Sequence record: MK327933.1
Direction: 5' to 3' (one strand)
DNA: 64,000 nt
DNA from: Escherichia phage vB_EcoM_G2285
The notes under the pieces are model-generated. The model saw only the letters and a program-made list of their open reading frames with translations. It was not told the DNA's origin and did no database searches. This document shows, piece by piece, positions 14,601 through 42,175 of the stretch. The stretch's first letter is position 1; the number at the start of each line of letters is the position of its first letter. A program made the translations under genes and the position numbers.

Positions 14601-14630
14601 AAACGAAAAAAGGAATCCCGAAGGATTCCT
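14601..14630 (-). terminator. rho-independent terminator after soc
   Basis: minus AGGAATCC-TTCG-GGATTCCT followed by TTTTTCGTTT. Confidence 0.65.
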
Positions 14631-14638
14631 TAAATTAT

Positions 14639-20224: not shown

Positions 20225-20230
20225 CCCGAA

Positions 20231-20250
20231 AGGAGACCGAAGTCTCCTTT
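20231..20250 (-). terminator. hairpin terminator after gene 41 (T-run stronger on plus strand)
   Basis: AGGAGAC-CGAA-GTCTCCT with TTTTT on plus strand; TTCGGGGTTT on minus. Confidence 0.45.
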
Positions 20251-21705: not shown

Positions 21706-22047
21706 TTAAAAGAATTTAAATTTTTTCTTGGTTCGTTCATTAAAAGCTTGTTGTACTTGCATTGTAACACATTTTTCAACGTGTGGTGCAAGTTCTGCTT
21801 TTCTGTCCTGGTCAAGAACTGCAAAGTCCATTACGATTTTACCATCATCCCAGTCTAGTTTTGTAATATAGACTATATGATGGGAACCGTCTTCAAGTGT
21901 AATCAGAATCTCTTGAATGACATTTTCCATTGCTGAACGGACAATTTTAAGAGATTCATTAAACACTCGTTCTTTGCGAATGTCCTCCCCTTCCGAAGAA
22001 GGGGAGTCATCAACGATTTCTAGATTTAAATCATCGAGATTATTCAT
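21706..22047 (-). CDS. 40: gp40-like protein (head vertex assembly chaperone position)
   Basis: about 113 aa between uvsX and gene 41; positional call. Confidence 0.5.
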   Translation of the reverse strand: MNNLDDLNLEIVDDSPSSEGEDIRKERVFNESLKIVRSAMENVIQEILITLEDGSHHIVYITKLDWDDGKIVMDFAVLDQDRKAELAPHVEKCVTMQVQQAFNERTKKKFKFF

Positions 22048-23212
22048 CGAAATCTTCCATTTCGTCAAGGTCGTTTTCTATATCTGCTGCAGACGGAGCA
22101 TCAGAAGTTTTAACCGGAACTTTAGTTGTTGCTTTGCAATTAATAAGGTCATTAACAGCGTCATCAACTTCTTTAATAGAAGAGATAGCACCTAGTTTAT
22201 ATTTAGTTTCAATTGCATCTCGGAAAGGTTTGTGTTTAAACAACGGCCCCCAGAATTCTACACAATCAGTAGCTTTAGCACGCCATGATTTTTCTTCACG
22301 AATCATTTCGCCTGTTTCTTCGTCAAGGAATTCACGAGCATACCACCCGGCTTTAGGCTTAACTACAAAACCAATTTCAGTTGCCATTTCTAACAAGCCG
22401 CTGAATGGGTCGATACCACCATCGAAATTAACCGTGATCGGGAAAGTAGATTTTTCTTTAACAGTACGAGATTTTTCTGCTTTCAACGTGAAGTCATAAC
22501 CGGTCAATTCTGTACCTTCTTTAACCTGACGTTTAGAGATAAAGAATACAGTGTTAGCAGAGTAAAGAATACCTGTACCACCACCCATAATCTCTTTAGG
22601 ATATAGTCCGCCGATTTCCATTGCGGTATGGTTAATTGCAACACACGGAATATCTTTAATAGTCAGATACGGGGTCACAATGCGGAACAGAGATTTAAGT
22701 GCCTTAGCACGAGACATATCACCTACAACTTTCTCGTTCAACGCATCTTCGGTTTCTTTCTTAGATGCAGTATTACCGATTGAATCGATAAAGATAATAA
22801 CTTTATCACCCCGTTCAATCGCGTCAAGCTGATTAGTCATATCAACTTTAAGTTGTTCGACGGATTGAATCGGAGTATGAACTACACGGTCTAAATCAAC
22901 ACCCATTGAACGAAAATAAGATTCTGAAGCACCGAATTCTGAGTCATAAAACAAACAGATTGCATCTTTATATTTCTTCATATATGCTGCAACCATAGTT
23001 AGTCCAAACAGTGTTTTAAAATGTTTAGAAGGTGCAGCAAAAATAGTTAAGCCTGATTGCAACCCGGCATTCAGTGCACCACCTAATGCAATATTCAACA
23101 TCGGAATACGAGTAGGGACTTCATCACGATTATTAAACAGCTTAGACTTAGTCAAGTCTGCAGTCATTTTAGAAGTAGAAGCTTTAATCAGACGAGATTT
23201 TAAATCAGACAT
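22040..23212 (-). CDS. uvsX: UvsX recombinase (RecA-like)
   Basis: 390 aa; MSDLKSRLIKASTSK.., GPSKHFKT Walker A; colinear with recalled T4 UvsX. Confidence 0.95.
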   Translation of the reverse strand: MSDLKSRLIKASTSKMTADLTKSKLFNNRDEVPTRIPMLNIALGGALNAGLQSGLTIFAAPSKHFKTLFGLTMVAAYMKKYKDAICLFYDSEFGASESYFRSMGVDLDRVVHTPIQSVEQLKVDMTNQLDAIERGDKVIIFIDSIGNTASKKETEDALNEKVVGDMSRAKALKSLFRIVTPYLTIKDIPCVAINHTAMEIGGLYPKEIMGGGTGILYSANTVFFISKRQVKEGTELTGYDFTLKAEKSRTVKEKSTFPITVNFDGGIDPFSGLLEMATEIGFVVKPKAGWYAREFLDEETGEMIREEKSWRAKATDCVEFWGPLFKHKPFRDAIETKYKLGAISSIKEVDDAVNDLINCKATTKVPVKTSDAPSAADIENDLDEMEDFDE

Positions 23213-23310
23213 TGTATTTTTCCATAGGCATCATTATATTTTACTCATGTTTAAAAGATAAGATGATTATATACTAAGGGTTATACAGCATTTAAAACTT
23301 TAAATGGCTC

Positions 23311-23859
23311 TTAACGAGCCCATTTGATGATTTCTGTAATCAAATCATTACGTTCGCTTGCATTAAATCCTATAACTTTGTTAGCACCATCATGATTAAG
23401 TAATTGATACGTTTGGATTTCGTTATGAATTGCAAACTCTTCAAAATATGAAATGACTGTATTAAAACCGAATGAAGACAAAGTAATAAGGTCGTCTTCA
23501 AAACTTTCAGTCATTTCGTTACGTGTTAAAATAATTGTGAACACATCATGGTTTTGGCAAAGACGAACATAATCCTGTTCATAAACGTCAAGAACCGAGT
23601 CCGCATCTTGTCGAATACGTCCATAAACCCAGTTACTAATATATCCACGGTCTAACAGATAAATCTTAGTAGGGTCTAAATAATTCAACATCGTTTCGAA
23701 ACAACCAACTTCATTTCGAGACTTAACATCGAAACGTCCATCAACTGTTCGTTTAGGGAAATCAATCTTTACATATCTTTCACTAATTTCCATTATGTCA
23801 TTAATGAAAGTTGTTTTACCAGCATTATCCGGGCCATCTACTAAAATAATTTTAGCCAT
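23311..23859 (-). CDS. P-loop nucleotide kinase-like protein (dNMP/thymidylate-kinase fold)
   Basis: 182 aa; Walker A VDGPDNAGKTT, downstream LLDRGY (DRY-like) motif. Confidence 0.5.
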   Translation of the reverse strand: MAKIILVDGPDNAGKTTFINDIMEISERYVKIDFPKRTVDGRFDVKSRNEVGCFETMLNYLDPTKIYLLDRGYISNWVYGRIRQDADSVLDVYEQDYVRLCQNHDVFTIILTRNEMTESFEDDLITLSSFGFNTVISYFEEFAIHNEIQTYQLLNHDGANKVIGFNASERNDLITEIIKWAR

Positions 23860-23860
23860 T

Positions 23861-24760
23861 TTATTCCTCGATTACGACATCTTCATATTTAGGTATATTA
23901 TACGGTGAAGAAATTAAAGCATTAAAGTAGATGAACTCACCAAGACCTGGATGGAATACTTCTTCAGGATTTTCGAAATATTGAATCTTCGGACGTCCTT
24001 TAAGAATTTGATAGTACTCAGTTTTAGTTGGTTTAAAAATTCGAATCAGCGCTTCTTCAGGATACTTATTTCTGTCGAAGCTATTATTTGGATCGGTTAT
24101 ATAAAGCGGTTGACCTAATTGAATTGCACATTCAACCACTTGTTCAAAACGATAGCATGGGTCACTAATTCGAAACGGATGAAAAATACCATCTAGATGA
24201 ATAGGAGCCAAATCACCTACAAGACGCTGCATGATGGAAGGACGTATAACTTTCTGCGTTACGATAATCTTATTACCATCGGCACCAGCGTTAACCAGCA
24301 CTTCTTTTTGACGTTCATTCAACACAGTAGTTTGAAGTGAACGATTAACCGACAACATGTCGGTTTTTAAGAATTCGTCAATATAAAAACGTGGTTTATT
24401 AGGGTCTGCCGTGATATTGAAATTGAATTCCACATCAAAAGCGCCGTCATATCCAGTGATATCTGTGATTAGAAAATCACAATCATAATAAGCAATTAAT
24501 GAATCAACCACAAATTCATTTTCAGACCAGAAATATTTACGAGTGTTATACGCGTTATCTTTATACCATAATGGAACAAACTTAAATTCCGGGAAAAGAC
24601 GTTCGCATTCTTTAATATCAGATGCATTACGTGGATATGTAATCACATCACCTGGATTAGCACGGTGCAAATGAAGTTGGAAGTTGCCATCCTTAAGGAT
24701 AGCATACTGTCCAGTTTCATAAGACCGCATACTCAAGATTGGTACGCGGAAAATAGCCAT
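23861..24760 (-). CDS. hypothetical protein in the position of T4 beta-glucosyltransferase
   Basis: 299 aa; tightly coupled to flanking genes; no recognised motif. Confidence 0.5.
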   Translation of the reverse strand: MAIFRVPILSMRSYETGQYAILKDGNFQLHLHRANPGDVITYPRNASDIKECERLFPEFKFVPLWYKDNAYNTRKYFWSENEFVVDSLIAYYDCDFLITDITGYDGAFDVEFNFNITADPNKPRFYIDEFLKTDMLSVNRSLQTTVLNERQKEVLVNAGADGNKIIVTQKVIRPSIMQRLVGDLAPIHLDGIFHPFRISDPCYRFEQVVECAIQLGQPLYITDPNNSFDRNKYPEEALIRIFKPTKTEYYQILKGRPKIQYFENPEEVFHPGLGEFIYFNALISSPYNIPKYEDVVIEE

Positions 24761-25476
24761 TAGTCAAGGAATCCTTTAACATAATCAAAATCACGTTCAA
24801 ACACATGGGCACTTACCATGGTATGAGTATAATCACCAACTTCTACACCACATTCGTTAGCGATATAATGAAGTAATTTTCCTTGGAGATAAAAATCCAA
24901 CTGCATAACAACAGCACAGTTCTGGGAACGCATATGACAGTGGGTATAAAGCTTACCATCACGAATATAATAAGTCACTGAGTCAGTACATGGATATTCA
25001 AGCGTTTCGTCCGAATCAAGCAAAGCCTGATCAGAACTTTCTAGAATTTGGAACACAACTCTTCGAGAGTTAGGCTTCTCTTTAAGTTCTTTTAGAAGAG
25101 CTGGTAATTGGGCCGCAATGCGAGGACCATAGAAAGTGTTGAAGTTTGCCGGCAAAACATCTGATTTTGGTTTAGAAATAAATTTAGCGACATTAGGATA
25201 TGCCTTAAACGCTTCTTCTGCGTTGGTACCACCAGAAATCATAAACTTCCAGAAGTCTTCGGCATATTCATAAGAGATGCGGTTAATACGTGGGTCGGTC
25301 ATTTTGAATGATGATGGAGTGTCAACAACTACTGTCATAGACCCAATTTCATTACAACGTCCAATACGAGAATCAGTTACGAATTCCGGGTTTTCTAAAA
25401 TTTCACGATTGACTGCTTTAAAGGCGGTTTGAAAATCTGCGGCTTTGATATATTTCATTGTGTTATGTTTTCCCAT
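24760..25476 (-). CDS. thymidylate-synthase-family pyrimidine hydroxymethylase (gp42-like, divergent)
   Basis: 238 aa; NSRR, YPCTDS (catalytic Cys), HMRSQN blocks of TS/dCMP-hydroxymethylase fold; N-terminal half unlike recalled T4 gp42. Confidence 0.6.
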   Translation of the reverse strand: MGKHNTMKYIKAADFQTAFKAVNREILENPEFVTDSRIGRCNEIGSMTVVVDTPSSFKMTDPRINRISYEYAEDFWKFMISGGTNAEEAFKAYPNVAKFISKPKSDVLPANFNTFYGPRIAAQLPALLKELKEKPNSRRVVFQILESSDQALLDSDETLEYPCTDSVTYYIRDGKLYTHCHMRSQNCAVVMQLDFYLQGKLLHYIANECGVEVGDYTHTMVSAHVFERDFDYVKGFLD

Positions 25477-25505
25477 GTTTACCTCAATACAATTTATTAT
25501 ATACT

Positions 25506-25530
25506 CAATTCATAAAGCTTATTTGAATTT
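25506..25530 (-). promoter_or_regulatory. middle-promoter-like element (MotA-box-like AAGCTTTA, 11 bp, -10 TATAAT)
   Basis: minus AAGCTTTA-TGAATTGAGTA-TATAAT then GAGGTAAACATGG. Confidence 0.4.
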
Positions 25531-25653
25531 CTTAGCGATGTTGATATAACGTAAAGCTTCAGCATCAATACTTCCAAGAACACTATGAAGAAATGCATCA
25601 GCGTAGTATTACAATTGAACAGGTTCTTTAATCACTTTAGCCGCTTTGGTTTT

Positions 25654-25677
25654 AAAAAGGCCCATCAGGGCCTTTTT
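25654..25677. terminator. bidirectional rho-independent terminator
   Basis: perfect palindrome AAAAAGGCCC-ATCA-GGGCCTTTTT, T-runs on both strands. Confidence 0.7.
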
Positions 25678-25754
25678 AAGAATTTGTTCGTTAGTGTTCA
25701 GTTTCGTAGTCAAAATCTCTTCATTAAGTTGGTGGTTAAAAGTTTTTCTAGAAA

Positions 25755-26915
25755 TCATTCCGGGTACCTCAAAGCGTCATCAGAGTTAGTTATATCAATA
25801 ATAGATATAGAGTTTTCTGCTAACCCGGTTTTAGATAATTGACGTTTATAATATCTTTCACAATATGTACACGTCGTCCCGCAGATTTCATTAGCACAAT
25901 CGAAATCTGGATGTCTGAACCACCTTTTTTCTAAAAAGCCATCTAACAAAGAGGTTTCAATATTTACTGTATGTGAAAACTCTGTCTCATTTTCAAGAGT
26001 GAAAATGGTCTCTAAAGGCTTCCACAGTTCTAACAAATTACCTTCAAACTTTTCAGAAGCATAAGCTTCAAGAACTTTCAAAATGTAGTCTGTGCTACCT
26101 GTACGTCCTGAAACTTTGAATTGAGTGATACCAATATCATTATAAAGTTTCAAATCTTGAGGACGAACAAAACGAGTTCTCAACCAGTTAAATGGATCTG
26201 TATCACGAGCTTTAATACAGTGCTGCATTGGATATCCATTTAAAGATTTGGCATCATCAGCTGTAACATCAGTACTATGGAAAATATAGCAAGAGTCACG
26301 ATAACTACAATGTGTTGTATACCCTTTACCAGCATTAGAACAGAACTCATTTACAAGAACTTCAAATATTATATTGTTCTTATTGCAAAACTCTGCTGCA
26401 CGCTTCAGGAAAGAAACTGAACGGTTCTTATGAATTCCACAGCAGACCTTTTTGATATTATATTGGTCATGCAAGTATTTGATTTGAGTTACAGCATCGA
26501 CATGTAGAATTGTTGAAACTTCAATCTCAATATCTTTATTGACTTCACGAACAATTTCCATAACAACAGGGTTAGCGATAGTAATACGCCATACGCCTAT
26601 TGACCAAAGATACTGAACATAATCCTGAATAGCTTTCTTCTTCCACTCAACTAGTTCTCTTTTTGAACCAGGATTTATCGTGTTGAGTGTATAGTTAAAG
26701 CAAATACCTAATTCGTTACAACGTTTAACGTAATCTTCTAACATCTTTTTGTCAACGTCAGGAAGCCTAAAATCAGGTCTGGCTGCTACAAAAGCCATTT
26801 CTCTTGTAGAGCCGTATACTTCGTTTATCAAGCTATTAGGATAAGTTTTATTGAGCTCTACGATTTTATCAAGAAGAGCTAAATCAAAATTCGTTCCGAT
26901 TTTAAAAGTATTCAT
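25755..26915 (-). CDS. Cys-rich enzyme of unknown function (weak peptidase-U32-like resemblance)
   Basis: 386 aa; C-terminal C-x4-C-x3-C-x2-C cluster plus VCCG, CSNAG, HCSYRDSC. Confidence 0.5.
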   Translation of the reverse strand: MNTFKIGTNFDLALLDKIVELNKTYPNSLINEVYGSTREMAFVAARPDFRLPDVDKKMLEDYVKRCNELGICFNYTLNTINPGSKRELVEWKKKAIQDYVQYLWSIGVWRITIANPVVMEIVREVNKDIEIEVSTILHVDAVTQIKYLHDQYNIKKVCCGIHKNRSVSFLKRAAEFCNKNNIIFEVLVNEFCSNAGKGYTTHCSYRDSCYIFHSTDVTADDAKSLNGYPMQHCIKARDTDPFNWLRTRFVRPQDLKLYNDIGITQFKVSGRTGSTDYILKVLEAYASEKFEGNLLELWKPLETIFTLENETEFSHTVNIETSLLDGFLEKRWFRHPDFDCANEICGTTCTYCERYYKRQLSKTGLAENSISIIDITNSDDALRYPE

Positions 26916-26972
26916 TTTTTTTGCATCTCACGTTAATTGACGCGATGGTTTTTGCAGGTCTTACTTAAATTA

Positions 26973-27374
26973 TTATAGATTCGGTTTATACGATTTAAAT
27001 GTTTCGAATTCGCCTTTATTCATAAGAGCTTTGAATTCGTCAGGACGCATAGCTTTGTCGTCGATAATCCAATCATATACTGGTTTATGTGTTAGCAAAT
27101 TATGGTACTTCAAACCAATGTTTTCCAAGTTCTGAATCAGACTTGGGAGAATGTCAATTGCTATACGACCAGGACCTACTGACTTCATACCGCGAGCAGT
27201 GTAAAGCGTTATGGTATGCCCTGCATCATACAGGGCATTAATGGCAGACACCATTTCGACGTCAGGTTTGAAGTTCACGTAATCACGATTGTTATTCCAC
27301 TCTGTTATACAATCATCGACATCAAAACAAAGATTAAGCATGTTTTCTACACGGTGCATTAGATTCGTTCCCAT
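26973..27374 (-). CDS. HAD-superfamily phosphatase
   Basis: 133 aa; motif I LCFDVDDCIT (DxDx[TV]) near N-terminus; alternative start 27359 overlaps upstream stop. Confidence 0.6.
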   Translation of the reverse strand: MGTNLMHRVENMLNLCFDVDDCITEWNNNRDYVNFKPDVEMVSAINALYDAGHTITLYTARGMKSVGPGRIAIDILPSLIQNLENIGLKYHNLLTHKPVYDWIIDDKAMRPDEFKALMNKGEFETFKSYKPNL

Positions 27375-29044
27375 TGATGAGTGATATCGCCACCGATTGG
27401 ACGATAGGAAACACCAGTTTCTTTATCAGTTAGTACCCATTTACCAGGATTTTTTGTAATCAGAGTAGCCGTTACAGGTTCTGCTACGTCATAACTAATA
27501 GAGCCGTCCTGAAGTACACGGCCCATATTACGTAATTGCTTAGTCAGAAGTTCCATACCTTTATAATATGCGGCTACCGCTTTAAGTGGATTATTCTTAA
27601 AATAACCACCTAATGCAATCCAGATAATTGCCACTGCCAAATGATGATACTCGTTAAATGAACTCATCTTTCCATATTTGTAAACTAATGGATTGATGTT
27701 AATAGTCACATTACAAGTTGTTTCATCAATAGTAAACTGGCCCCAGGTCGGATTAGCGTTGAATTCATCATAACCTGAAACAGCATAAAGCACTTTAGCT
27801 TCATCATACAATTTTGGCCCGTAAATCTTGGTTTCGCCAAAATATCCACGAGGGTCGATAAACTTGACTTCGCCGTTATCAGTAATCATAGTATTACTGA
27901 AGTTCGGGTCACCATGAATAACAGAGTACTGTCCCTGAGAACGGTTATGATAGCGAATAAGATGTTCTAAAGCTTGTTTCAGCATTGGCTTCAGACGTCC
28001 AATCTTAGTGTAGTTCACATGTGTGATTTTACCAAATGAATCAATCAATGGTTGAATGCTTTCACAACGATCAATAACTTTCGTATAGAATTCTTTAGTG
28101 AAATCACGACGAACAGTTTCAGGACTTACAAAATAAGTGTCTGTGCTGAATTTCAGTGCATCTAAAATTGCATCAACAATTTGTGGACGAGCAAGACTTG
28201 ATTTGGATTTAATATATTCAAATGCCGGCTTACCTTTAATGCGTTCCATTTCAAAGTTATTTTCATTAACAGAAACTAACTGAGGAACTGAATCTGATTT
28301 CACTTTAAGATACCATGAAATCTCATCTTTCTGAAGAGCTCGACCTTGTTCGGTTAATGCGAATTTAGTTACAGTTTCTTCACCAATTTCAACTGCATTA
28401 AAACTACGATTAAGTTCACGAACTTCATGGGCCTTTTCAAGTTTAGGCATATCACCAAGGTCGATGATATTCATAAGCTCTGATTTATTGAATGCGCCGC
28501 TGTAAAGGAATTCTACGAAATCACGTCCTTTGCAGTATTCATGAATTTCCTCATCAGTAGAACCCATGTAGAATTCCCAGTCTTTGAACTGATAAATTCC
28601 TACAACATTACCACCTGTTGAACCTACGTTAGTGATATTTTCACCGTCGAAATTATATCGACATTCGTCACCCTTAACATAGATTGCGTTAACATTCCAA
28701 GACCATGAACCAAAATCTGGAATAATATCACACCAGTTAACAATTACGTTATGGCCGTCTAAATCTTTGTGTAATTTAGCAAGAGCATAAGCAGAACCAT
28801 ACGCTTCATCAACTGTACGAATAGTCACATTGAACCCTTCTTGCTCACAATAAGCTCGAACAGTTTCAGCAAATTTTGAATGAACTACTACAATAATTTC
28901 ATCTGCGCCAAGGTCAGAATAAATTGTATACAAATTGCTCAGAATAGTGTCTTGTTTATAGTTAACAAGCACCTTGGGAATATGATGCGTTATTGGATAT
29001 AAACGAGTTGCCAGACCAGCACCAAGAATAACAGCTTTTTTCAT
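27359..29044 (-). CDS. bifunctional sugar-phosphate nucleotidyltransferase / APH-like kinase
   Basis: 561 aa; N-terminal ILGAGLATRL NTP-transferase motif; C-terminal VIHGDPNFSN..IDPRG kinase catalytic-loop-like motif. Confidence 0.6.
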   Translation of the reverse strand: MKKAVILGAGLATRLYPITHHIPKVLVNYKQDTILSNLYTIYSDLGADEIIVVVHSKFAETVRAYCEQEGFNVTIRTVDEAYGSAYALAKLHKDLDGHNVIVNWCDIIPDFGSWSWNVNAIYVKGDECRYNFDGENITNVGSTGGNVVGIYQFKDWEFYMGSTDEEIHEYCKGRDFVEFLYSGAFNKSELMNIIDLGDMPKLEKAHEVRELNRSFNAVEIGEETVTKFALTEQGRALQKDEISWYLKVKSDSVPQLVSVNENNFEMERIKGKPAFEYIKSKSSLARPQIVDAILDALKFSTDTYFVSPETVRRDFTKEFYTKVIDRCESIQPLIDSFGKITHVNYTKIGRLKPMLKQALEHLIRYHNRSQGQYSVIHGDPNFSNTMITDNGEVKFIDPRGYFGETKIYGPKLYDEAKVLYAVSGYDEFNANPTWGQFTIDETTCNVTININPLVYKYGKMSSFNEYHHLAVAIIWIALGGYFKNNPLKAVAAYYKGMELLTKQLRNMGRVLQDGSISYDVAEPVTATLITKNPGKWVLTDKETGVSYRPIGGDITHQWERI

Positions 29045-29085
29045 GTTGAAGTCCTCATTGGTAAGTAGGAGTATTGTACACTATT

Positions 29086-29229
29086 CTAGTTAAAGCATTC
29101 ATACTTTGCTTGTAGTCCAATCATAATCCATCCAATCACAAGTGTTGGAATCATTACCGGAGCCGTTAAGCTCCAGTAGATAGTCATGAAAAGCATCAAT
29201 AGTAAAAGTCCTATTGTTATTGCTTTCAT
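29086..29229 (-). CDS. 47 aa hydrophobic membrane peptide, absent from ORF track
   Basis: hand translation MKAITIGLLLLMLFMTIYWSLTAPVMIPTLVIGWIMIGLQAKYECFN; ATGA overlap with upstream stop. Confidence 0.4.
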   Translation of the reverse strand: MKAITIGLLLLMLFMTIYWSLTAPVMIPTLVIGWIMIGLQAKYECFN

Positions 29230-33731: not shown

Positions 33732-33762
33732 TTTGTTTGTTGATGAACTTATTATACTCCAA

Positions 33763-33780
33763 ATGGGACCGAAGTCCCAT
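33763..33780 (-). terminator. hairpin after regA (ATGGGAC-TTCG-GTCCCAT), followed by TGGAGTATAAT promoter-like -10
   Basis: perfect 7-bp stem with TTCG loop; weak U-tail. Confidence 0.4.
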
Positions 33781-33784
33781 TGCT

Positions 33785-41974: not shown

Positions 41975-42002
41975 AAGCAAAAAAGGAACTCCGAAGAGTT
42001 CC
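41975..42002 (-). terminator. rho-independent terminator
   Basis: minus GGAACTC-TTCG-GAGTTCC followed by TTTTTTGCTT. Confidence 0.7.
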
Positions 42003-42175
42003 TATCCACATAGTACACCGTACAGAGGCTCATTTGAACTTTTAAATCGAATGGGCTTGTATGTAATAGTTCCTTCGGCTTTAGCTTTATCATAAGACTC
42101 TTTAAAACGTCTCATTCTTTCTGCTTTGCCTTTACGGATTTTATCGAAATTTTCAGAAGTCGGGATGTTCGTCAT
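42002..42175 (-). CDS. 57 aa basic protein, absent from ORF track
   Basis: hand translation MTNIPTSENFDKIRKGKAERMRRFKESYDKAKAEGTITYKPIRFKSSNEPLYGVLCG. Confidence 0.4.
   Translation of the reverse strand: MTNIPTSENFDKIRKGKAERMRRFKESYDKAKAEGTITYKPIRFKSSNEPLYGVLCG

Follow-up and report, generated by a model that had tools for sequence, protein, structure and literature searches.

The palindrome at 25652-25679 of the analysed window, by which we mean the whole 64,000-nt stretch of Escherichia phage vB_EcoM_G2285, is predicted to encode a stem-loop in the minus-strand (sense) RNA, and we hold with moderate confidence that this hairpin ends the upstream unit of the local gene island, either as an intrinsic terminator of partial strength or as a 3'-end hairpin. 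A preliminary description had the hairpin divide the island into two units. Such a transcript boundary is plausible because the element has the anatomy of a terminator, is positioned before a conserved promoter, shows compensatory changes in its stem and is matched by stable hairpins in most related lineages; the separate timing, the bidirectional action and the intergenic site that had been attached to it did not hold up. As a terminator the hairpin is unremarkable and a fairly ordinary regulatory element, previously unlisted.

The window is from an RB69-like Mosigvirus, and megablast of 23300-27400 returned 151 near-full-length matches at 95-99% identity, all of them to RB69-like Mosigvirus. 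In the annotation of RB69 and Bas47, read from right to left, gp43 is followed by a phosphosugar isomerase, the arabinose-activation genes, the U32 "peptidase" and a small hypothetical protein, and further leftward by the ThyA-like gene, a 299-aa protein, a kinase and uvsX, all on one strand (Table 1). The gene order originally described around the hairpin is right. According to a 2026 paper, RB69 DNA contains arabinosylated 5-hydroxycytosine and not hydroxymethylcytosine; UDP-arabinose is made by gp51, gp52:53 and gp55, gp48 is a flavin- and O2-dependent 5-hydroxy-dCMP synthase, gp46:47 a putative arabinosyltransferase and gp45 a nucleotide kinase (PMC13326640). The label "hydroxymethylase" first given to the ThyA-like gene is thus superseded, its product now being known as 5-hydroxy-dCMP synthase. 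The same paper gives gp50 (U32) only as a "sugar or heterocycle reductase", and gp49 is absent from its discussion (PMC13326640). The arabinose genes are an insertion relative to T4, located between the small membrane ORF and gene 42. T4 has no hairpin at the corresponding place, where gene 42 directly follows a small unannotated membrane ORF, and a T4 counterpart of the hairpin was rejected on this basis.

Table 1. Coordinates of the hairpin, the promoter-like sites and the genes of the island in the window.
Feature	Position	Strand	Remark
SIS isomerase, 211 aa	29226-29861	-	family assignment
Small membrane ORF, 47 aa	29086-29229	-	
MotA-type middle-promoter-like site, AATGCTTTA-N12-TACAAT	29073-29099	-	upstream of 561-aa gene, start of upstream unit
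Bifunctional nucleotidyltransferase and kinase, 561 aa, RB69 gp52:53 / AfhE homologue	27359-29044	-	
HAD-like phosphatase, 133 aa, RB69 gp51 / AfhF homologue	26973-27374	-	
Peptidase-U32-family (U32-like) gene, 386 aa, RB69 gp50 homologue	25755-26915	-	last long gene of upstream unit
Truncated small gene, 49 aa, homologue of RB69ORF049c / phrog_8601 (ORF049)	25609-25758	-	ATGA start overlap
Stem-loop	25652-25679	-	predicted sense RNA 5'-UUAAAAAGGCCC-UGAU-GGGCCUUUUUAA-3'
Remnant of the C-terminal 30 codons of ancestral ORF049	25519-25611	-	ancestral stop 25519-25521
MotA-type middle-promoter-like site, AATAAGCTTTA-N11-TATAAT	25496-25523	-	~20 nt upstream of ThyA-like start codon
ThyA-like gene, 238 aa, RB69 gp48 homologue	24760-25476	-	first gene of downstream unit
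299-aa gene, RB69 gp46:47 homologue, putative arabinosyltransferase 1	23861-24760	-	
Third middle-promoter-like site	23897-23920		ahead of kinase gene
P-loop nucleotide kinase, 182 aa, RB69 gp45 homologue	23311-23859	-	
uvsX, 390 aa	22040-23212	-	

On the plus strand, positions 25654-25677 read AAAAAGGCCC-ATCA-GGGCCTTTTT, exactly as first described. The palindrome is real, but the arms of 10 bp ascribed to it were too short: perfect 12-bp arms, TTAAAAAGGCCC and GGGCCTTTTTAA, span 25652-25679. In the minus-strand RNA, the core AGGCCC-UGAU-GGGCCU is GC-rich (GC core at 25659-25663 and 25668-25672, loop at 25664-25667), longer than the minimum of 5 bp for a terminator stem and extendable to 12 bp, and in the window a UUUUU tract follows directly on its 3' side on the transcribed strand. 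Among the perfect inverted repeats of the 64-kb window with loops of 3-8 nt, the palindrome with its 12-bp arms ranks first in length. Arm length is nevertheless weak evidence of function, because dinucleotide shuffles of the window also reach 12 bp in 4/60 cases (~7%; 10-bp arms in 27/60), and we rejected it as functional proof.

Stability and conservation are stronger evidence than arm length. A 39-nt sense RNA folds at -18.2 kcal/mol compared to -6.2 ± 2.3 kcal/mol for its shuffles (z = -5.2; 0/200 as stable), and the hairpin is the most stable 32-nt fold among the 6070 windows of that length in the 6.1-kb island (23000-29100). It also ranks first in a consensus terminator scan of 18-33 kb, a scan in which the overall count is not raised (7 matches vs 9.0 ± 3.3 by chance). 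Allowing up to three mismatches, the palindrome matches the 64-kb window only once. A search of the hairpin against Rfam gave Thr_leader as the sole match, at 20 bits vs a gathering score of 55 (E = 0.51); this is chance level, and membership in a known RNA family was rejected.

The hairpin had been placed between genes, but it is not intergenic. It falls within the minus-strand ORF of 49 aa at 25609-25758, where it takes up codons 27-36 (K K A L M G L F K). It is located 76 nt past the stop of the U32-like gene, yet within this ORF, and ~134 nt ahead of the MotA-type promoter for the ThyA-like gene. The start of the ORF overlaps the stop of the 386-aa U32-like gene via ATGA, an arrangement of translational coupling. 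Its homologue comprises 79 aa in RB69, Bas47, G53 and SA79RD; the window instead has an in-frame stop, TAA at 25609-25611, in place of the GAA of relatives. Homologues coupled to the U32-like gene in the same way, through ATGA, were found in the Yersinia phages phiR1-RT, TG1 and fHe-Yen9-01 as well as in Pectobacterium PM2, Serratia 92A1 and several metagenome contigs; the motif K-A-L-x-x-L-F is kept across genera, and pN/pS is 0.16 among the 10 intact Mosigvirus copies, indicating purifying selection. Judged from these comparisons, ORF049 is a real gene family encoding a conserved 79-aa protein, and its dismissal as a spurious ORF was rejected because of the homologues in several genera and the low pN/pS among intact copies.

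Searches of ORF049 against Pfam and NCBIfam gave no match. We also considered a decayed chorismate mutase, as ORF049 shares slot and length with the CM_2 gene of Entb_45, and rejected it since no homology to CM_2 was found (hhalign probability against phage CM_2 proteins 0.3%). ORF049 is a family separate from chorismate mutase and adjoins a chorismate mutase gene in the Yersinia, Pectobacterium and Serratia phages. Among the 20 sampled Mosigvirus copies, ORF049 is truncated or shortened in 10, with at least six independent disruptions (nonsense, +1, +2, -4, a 39-nt deletion and an early +1 in phage SF). These fall just downstream of the hairpin, except for the early +1 in phage SF, which precedes the stem. 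Because this sample is enriched for divergent records, the true share of broken copies is lower; in an even sample, about 10/56 matches were split by frameshifts. Truncated forms of 42-58 aa fill many clusters in a large protein database.

The comparison of relatives points to the stem rather than the peptide as the conserved feature. None of the 20 Mosigvirus copies departs from the GGCCC/GGGCC core, not even at the third positions of AAG, GCC and GGC, where a change would be synonymous. The loop, in contrast, differs at each of its four bases (UGAU, UUAU, AUAA, AUCA), and the encoded residues change radically (LM, HK, HQ). In phage SF the stem is intact although the ORF049 frame is lost ahead of it. 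In VIPECOMC06, the 5' arm has C for A (Lys to Gln), which pairs with the G in the tail (CTG, Leu) and brings the fold to -20.2 kcal/mol; Yersinia phage fHe-Yen9-01 acquired the same substitution independently. Contig L038 (82% protein identity), which retains the U5 run and the promoter, has replaced a C-G by a U-A pair through GCC to GCT, which leaves Ala unchanged, and GGC to AGC, which turns Gly into Ser. In the Yersinia phages a hairpin stands in the same codon register, AGAGAAGGCGC-UUGC-GCGCUUGUUCUCU, with pairs swapped from CG to GC, AU to GC and UA to AU, and with Gly to Arg accompanied by GCC to GCG; here the U-rich stretch UUGUUCUCU belongs to the extended stem. G-U pairs are tolerated in the stems of relatives. 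The perfect 12-bp stem of the window is itself derived, as it has CTT, not CTG, plus a unique GAA to AAA change (Glu to Lys).

Covariation was counted over 12 pairs in 12 sequences, of which 95.1% of cells are paired; in four pairs both partners have changed, and at one pair CG, GC and UA all occur. The resulting score of 0.261 compares with 0.121 ± 0.022 in shuffles (0/500) and at most 0.101 in slid controls, and it rests on few independent events, namely two genera, L038 and VIPECOMC06. The sample stays small because IMG/VR contributed one extra Mosigvirus locus and the JGI metagenomes four. As far as sequence comparison can show, the hairpin is evolutionarily maintained as an RNA structure, and at this site selection appears to act on the stem rather than on the protein. 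The hairpin offers a clean natural case of RNA-structure selection overriding residue choice (Gly to Ser, Gly to Arg, Lys to Gln).

These changes also bear on whether the palindrome is just a by-product of coding, the codons of K-K-A-L-x-G-L-F being mutually reverse-complementary (AAAAAG/CTTTTT, GCC/GGC) and having no nucleic-acid function. The hairpin does lie in frame in a real protein family whose K-A-L-x-x-L-F residues persist across genera, perfect repeats of this length turn up in shuffled windows at the rate given above, and the ORF049 homologues of Serratia 92A1, L031, L036 and L040 have no hairpin at this spot. We nevertheless regard this origin as very unlikely, given that residues changed in ways that keep the pairing (Gly to Ser in L038, Gly to Arg in Yersinia, Lys to Gln twice), that loop residues vary freely, that the stem persists in phage SF despite prior loss of the frame, and that lineages without this hairpin have another very stable hairpin nearby.

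In the reading we prefer, a partial terminator at the end of the upstream unit, transcripts initiated at the 29073-29099 promoter, or at some point before it, would cross the genes for 561, 133 and 386 aa, enter ORF049 and have their 3' ends set by the stem-loop. Intrinsic termination there would be incomplete, its strength would vary with the allele, and the stem-loop would also block 3' exonucleases. About 134 nt further on, the 25496-25523 promoter would restart transcription of the 5-hydroxy-dCMP synthase, arabinosyltransferase and kinase genes, so that the expression level of the downstream genes would be independent of read-through. The analysis itself shows the sequence, the stability of the fold, its conservation and covariation, the surrounding genes and the promoter motifs; a halt of RNA polymerase at the hairpin, its partial nature and the middle-mode expression of both units are what we infer. 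Should transcription of the upstream unit end at the hairpin, the arabinosyl-5-hydroxycytosine cluster would consist of two insulated middle-mode units and not of one operon, a layout which would affect the rebuilding or engineering of the pathway, for example when the cluster is cloned or when ORF049 or the U32-like gene is deleted.

With the intrinsic terminators of E. coli and T4-like phages the hairpin shares a GC-rich stem, a 4-nt loop, a U-run on the transcribed strand, an A-run upstream and a position shortly after the stop of a long gene with a promoter next, and its quality equals or exceeds that of the TransTerm sites of RB69 (5-7 bp). It differs from them in being placed within a small coupled ORF instead of a spacer and in having a U-run that is interrupted in most relatives. 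Its loop is UGAU instead of the C(UUCG)G terminator type found in the window at 14610, 20229, 21985, 33762 and 41984. The element is also less than the "perfect" terminator it was called: the U5 run is whole in only 7/20 Mosigvirus copies, the other 13 having UGUUU through a synonymous CTT/CTG change. RB69 itself carries this weaker UGUUU tail. The site is absent from the TransTerm listing for RB69 because it is inside an annotated ORF.

Several further points count against termination. A ribosome trailing closely in the coupled ORF049 could suppress it, a strong stop would starve the 3' half of ORF049 itself, and the U-tract is poorly conserved, with compensatory changes favouring stem stability over U-tract quality. 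The Yersinia hairpin is no tight terminator, because its U-rich stretch lies within the stem and chorismate mutase follows downstream without an evident promoter. A literature search for transcript maps or 3' ends of RB69-like (Mosigvirus) or phiR1-RT-like phages found none.

A wider comparison covered 13 lineages carrying both the U32-like and the ThyA-like gene. In 8/13 of them, the most stable 32-nt fold of the entire locus (1-6 kb) sits between the U32-like stop and the ThyA-like start. The hairpin in this slot lies inside ORF049 in Mosigvirus, L038 and the Yersinia phages, and directly past the ORF049 stop in L036 (AGGCCUC-AAU-GAGGCCU, then UUUU). In Entb_45, PhiKpNIH-6 and L031 a GACCUCC-GNRA-GGAGGUC hairpin occupies the chorismate mutase gene at its 5' end. 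In L040 a remnant of this GNRA hairpin, left after loss of chorismate mutase, directly abuts TGCTTAA-N12-TAAAAT, and in Clarke_MM3 a UUCG hairpin followed by U4 stands in a 44-nt spacer and ranks only within the top 5% of background intervals. Pectobacterium PM2, Proteus PM2, CBH8 and 92A1 have a weak hairpin or none. Only some versions carry a U-tract, and the GNRA hairpins of Entb_45 and PhiKpNIH-6 are without any. The recurrence at this slot of hairpins that differ in sequence and place argues that a strong hairpin is useful at the boundary.

It is conceivable, although we rate it as rather unlikely, that the stem-loop is a recurrent, convergently kept boundary structure, possibly a translation-sensitive attenuator, in most arabinosyl-5-hydroxycytosine T4-like phages. 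On one side of the boundary would be a module made up of the U32-like gene with ORF049 and, in relatives, chorismate mutase, on the other the ThyA-like 5-hydroxy-dCMP synthase, and read-through into the base-modification genes would depend on translation of the upstream module. Such attenuation is thinkable because the hairpin is inside a translationally coupled small ORF. Leader-peptide attenuators such as the thr operon leader likewise have a terminator hairpin in or just after a short translated ORF, where the position of the ribosome could matter. At the present hairpin, in contrast, we found no alternative antiterminator pairing and no regulatory codon run, and ORF049, as a conserved protein of 79 aa, differs from a leader peptide.

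The main rival to a terminator, which we consider possible but doubtful, is a functional RNA hairpin that does not terminate, serving as a stability or processing element or as a translational brake in ORF049. It would shield the upstream mRNA from 3' exonucleases after cleavage, or modulate the flow of ribosomes from the U32-like gene to ORF049 and the later genes. Conservation across genera in the paired stem and not in the U-tract fits such a role, as do the compensatory G-C pairs within the would-be U-tract, the GNRA hairpins of Entb_45, PhiKpNIH-6 and L031, which lie in chorismate mutase coding sequence with no U-run, and the overlapping coupled chain that U32-like gene, ORF049, chorismate mutase and ThyA-like gene form in Yersinia phages. 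Against this role, the hairpin is followed in the window, L038, L036 and Clarke_MM3 by U4-U5 and then by a promoter, the classic terminator-then-promoter layout, and no nuclease site or protein partner can be named for a non-terminating element.

The promoter that follows the hairpin had been noticed as a MotA-like box at 25506-25530. It is real and on the minus strand, but its proper position is 25496-25523, where it fits the Mot box (a/t)(a/t)(a/t)TGCTTtA + 11-13 bp + TAnnnT with one departure, an A in place of the consensus T before GCTT. Apart from this difference the predicted site resembles the MotA/AsiA-dependent middle promoters of T4 and RB69, and its GCTTTA-N11-TATAAT (25496-25518, minus strand) is present in 20/20 Mosigvirus copies. 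It corresponds to RB69 Pm:26264, predicted by Nolan et al. 2006, and is annotated as a T4-like middle promoter in GenBank record OL960576. The motif class as a whole is enriched in the window (33 sites vs 6.0 ± 2.3 expected), and RB69 has a motA orthologue (PMC1524935).

From the hairpin together with this promoter it had been suggested that the sugar-donor and the base-modification genes are separately timed. However, an equally good or better MotA-type promoter (29073-29099), which corresponds to RB69 Pm:29842 as predicted by Nolan et al. 2006, precedes the sugar genes. There is thus no sequence hint of different timing, because both halves of the island have the same promoter class; early promoters are absent from the RB69 interval 20971-42465 in the predictions of Nolan et al. 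2006. The functional split into sugar and base genes is not clean either: the arabinose-5-phosphate isomerase gene lies upstream of the 29073-29099 promoter, and the upstream unit includes the U32-like gene and ORF049, neither of which has a demonstrated sugar role.

Antisense transcripts are known in T4, and the hairpin had been described as a bidirectional terminator. In sequence it is flanked by T- or U-runs on both strands (plus tail TTTTTAAG, minus tail TTTTTAAAA); the plus-strand T5 run after the stem is found in 19/20 relatives, and in its local context the plus-strand fold is even more stable (-33.5 kcal/mol over 131 nt). A true bidirectional terminator, also stopping plus-strand (antisense) transcription from the uvsX side, is unlikely all the same. 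The genes are co-directional, with all ORFs of at least 100 aa in 20-31 kb on the minus strand except a lone 121-aa plus-strand ORF inside the uvsX homologue. A T4-type late promoter, TATAAATA, could have supplied antisense transcripts for the hairpin to stop; none was found on the plus strand anywhere left of the hairpin in the window, and this candidate was rejected. Sigma-70-like matches are at chance level (57 found vs 52 expected). The plus-strand T-run is accounted for by the conserved Lys-Lys codons AAA AAG of ORF049 on the opposite strand. Bidirectionality is a property of the sequence only, because nothing on the plus strand needs terminating.

A close parallel described among T4-like phages is found in the PeSL/PmSL cassettes of stem-loop and promoter, which terminate efficiently in reporter tests (PMC2839356; PMC4122927). 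As in these cassettes (Arbiol 2010, PMC2839356; Comeau 2014, PMC4122927), a stem-loop running from A-run/G-run to C-run/T-run is followed by a promoter, which in PmSLs, as in the window, is a Mot-box middle promoter. Also shared is the location at the edge of accessory genes in an indel-prone region, where the proposed role is the insulation of neighbouring units: the hairpin region is an indel hotspot with 83-98% identity vs ~98% in the flanks. In contrast to the cassettes, the stem-loop of the window is intragenic and single-copy and not a repeated mobile cassette, and stem-loop and promoter, contiguous only in the relatives L036 and L040, are ~134 nt apart. A multi-copy PeSL-like repeat was therefore rejected. 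The hairpin resembles the stem-loop half of a PmSL and is not a member of PeSL/PmSL as defined, that is, compact, repeated and intergenic.

The same features raise the question of a DNA-level element, either a recombination linker of PeSL/PmSL type or a protein-binding palindrome at the cassette boundary, for which we see scarcely any probability. The stem is similar to the A3-4G3-loop-C3T3-4 stem-loops of nt-1 PeSLs, and both the indel hotspot and the insertion of the arabinose genes relative to T4 would suit it. However, there is no partner for homologous exchange, because the palindrome is single-copy in the window, the promoter is not contiguous, and the tolerated G-U pairs fit RNA rather than DNA pairing.

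A separate observation concerns the U32-like gene upstream of the hairpin. A Pfam CM_2 chorismate mutase gene adjoins this gene in eight non-Mosigvirus lineages (seven phage records and one metagenome contig), so that its presence varies between lineages; Mosigvirus, including the window, is without it. In 7/8 of these lineages it has the ThyA-like gene on one side and the U32-like gene or ORF049 on the other; Shewanella Thanatos-2 shows a different order, with chorismate mutase after the U32-like gene and just before uvsX. The phage U32-like protein matches Pfam Peptidase_U32 above threshold and UbiU weakly, and a PDB sequence search gave no match. The peptidase U32 family includes RlhA, TrhP and UbiU/UbiV. 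For RlhA (ho5C2501 in 23S rRNA) the hydroxyl group has to be donated by prephenate, and of the two counterparts TrhP and TrhO the former depends on prephenate and the latter on O2 (review PMC13602947). U32, prephenate and chorismate are unmentioned in the 2026 paper (PMC13326640), and our literature search for a link between U32, chorismate mutase and 5-hydroxycytosine found no paper making it. The presence of a U32-like enzyme and a chorismate mutase beside an O2-dependent 5-hydroxy-dCMP synthase suggests an oxygen-independent route to 5-hydroxycytosine, a putative prephenate-dependent hydroxylation of cytosine. We consider this coupling of the U32-like gene with chorismate mutase in relatives a more consequential lead than the terminator.

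A 47-aa membrane ORF in the window is homologous to an unannotated 49-codon ORF of T4 (57% over 30 aa, E = 5e-14), which lies within the "imm-42 intercistronic region". Since gene 42 is directly adjacent to this ORF in T4, the arabinose, U32-like (peptidase-U32 family) and ORF049 genes are an insertion that separates the gene 42 homologue from the small membrane ORF. The cluster carries homing-endonuclease genes, segB-like or of another kind, at varying positions in Proteus PM2, phiR1-RT and Serratia CBH8, and is thereby shown to be a hotspot for mobile insertions. The 299-aa (putative arabinosyltransferase) and 561-aa (nucleotidyltransferase and kinase) genes are unbroken in both the window and Bas47. 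The RB69 record AY303349 splits their homologues into ORF046c/047c and ORF052c/053c, respectively, which a 2026 RB69 paper attributes to sequencing errors (PMC13326640).

Outside Mosigvirus, a chorismate mutase gene (Pfam CM_2) adjoins the U32-like gene in relatives, and the pair is accompanied by the O2-dependent, ThyA-like 5-hydroxy-dCMP synthase in all except Shewanella Thanatos-2. The U32-family enzymes RlhA, TrhP and UbiU/V carry out O2-independent hydroxylations that draw on prephenate, which chorismate mutase produces. Dependence on prephenate is described for TrhP and for RlhA, which makes ho5C (PMC13602947). Together with these prephenate-using hydroxylases, the chorismate mutase neighbour suggests a putative anaerobic route to 5-hydroxycytosine, which the 2026 RB69 paper (PMC13326640) does not mention.

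The 5′ end of phage chorismate mutase genes itself encodes a second hairpin, GACCUCC-GNRA-GGAGGUC, specified by the codons D-L-R-x-E-V; the Pectobacterium PM2 version reads AACCUCA-GAAA-UGAGGUU. At locus L040, the chorismate mutase gene has been lost, yet the hairpin persists as an intergenic remnant, contiguous with a Mot-box promoter.

Around the terminator-like hairpin in the small gene ORF049, 361 bp of the window (25440-25800) show 83-98% identity among Mosigviruses, compared to ~98% for the surrounding 4.1 kb, and form a mosaic of two haplotypes. The lower identity suggests relaxed constraint or inter-lineage recombination. In the window, a nonsense codon (GAA to TAA, 25609-25611) shortens the ORF049 homologue to 49 aa, and at least six different mutations break the gene in other Mosigviruses, grouped 20-60 nt 3′ of the hairpin. 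Considering intact copies only, pN/pS was 0.16.

Coordinates of features in the window and in loci extracted from relatives (L009, T4; L014, Proteus PM2; L015, phiR1-RT; L016, Serratia CBH8)
Feature	Position	Strand
299-aa gene	23861-24760	
561-aa gene	27359-29044	
U32-like gene	25755-26915	minus
Cut-off part of ORF049	25519-25608	
47-aa membrane ORF	29086-29229	minus
T4 49-codon ORF	L009:3728-3877	minus
Homing-endonuclease genes	L014:2696-3379; L015:852-1490; L016:852-1490	
Chorismate mutase genes	L012:2658-2897; L011:2658-2903; L013:2825-3067; L014:3606-3992; L015:2875-3168; L016:2658-3002; L017:2634-2891; L037:1722-1979	
Second hairpin (chorismate mutase type)	L012:~2673-2690; L011:~2678-2697; L031:~1734-1751; L040:~1694-1711; L013:~2845-2862	
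CCGAAG palindromes	14610-14631; 20229-20250; 21985-22006; 33762-33781; 41984-42003	
Mot-box examples	23897-23920; 25496-25518; 29073-29096	minus

Across the whole window, the Mot-box pattern GCTTYA-N11-13-TANNNT was found 33 times versus 6.0 ± 2.3 expected, with 20/33 matches in minus-strand orientation. The octamer of late promoters, TATAAATA, showed no enrichment (6 found, 7.6 expected). The window also contains five perfect palindromes of 8-9 bp with the centre CCGAAG, corresponding to C(UUCG)G tetraloop hairpins in the minus-strand RNA and matching the classic intercistronic hairpins of T4. The third of them lies within the coding region of gene 40.
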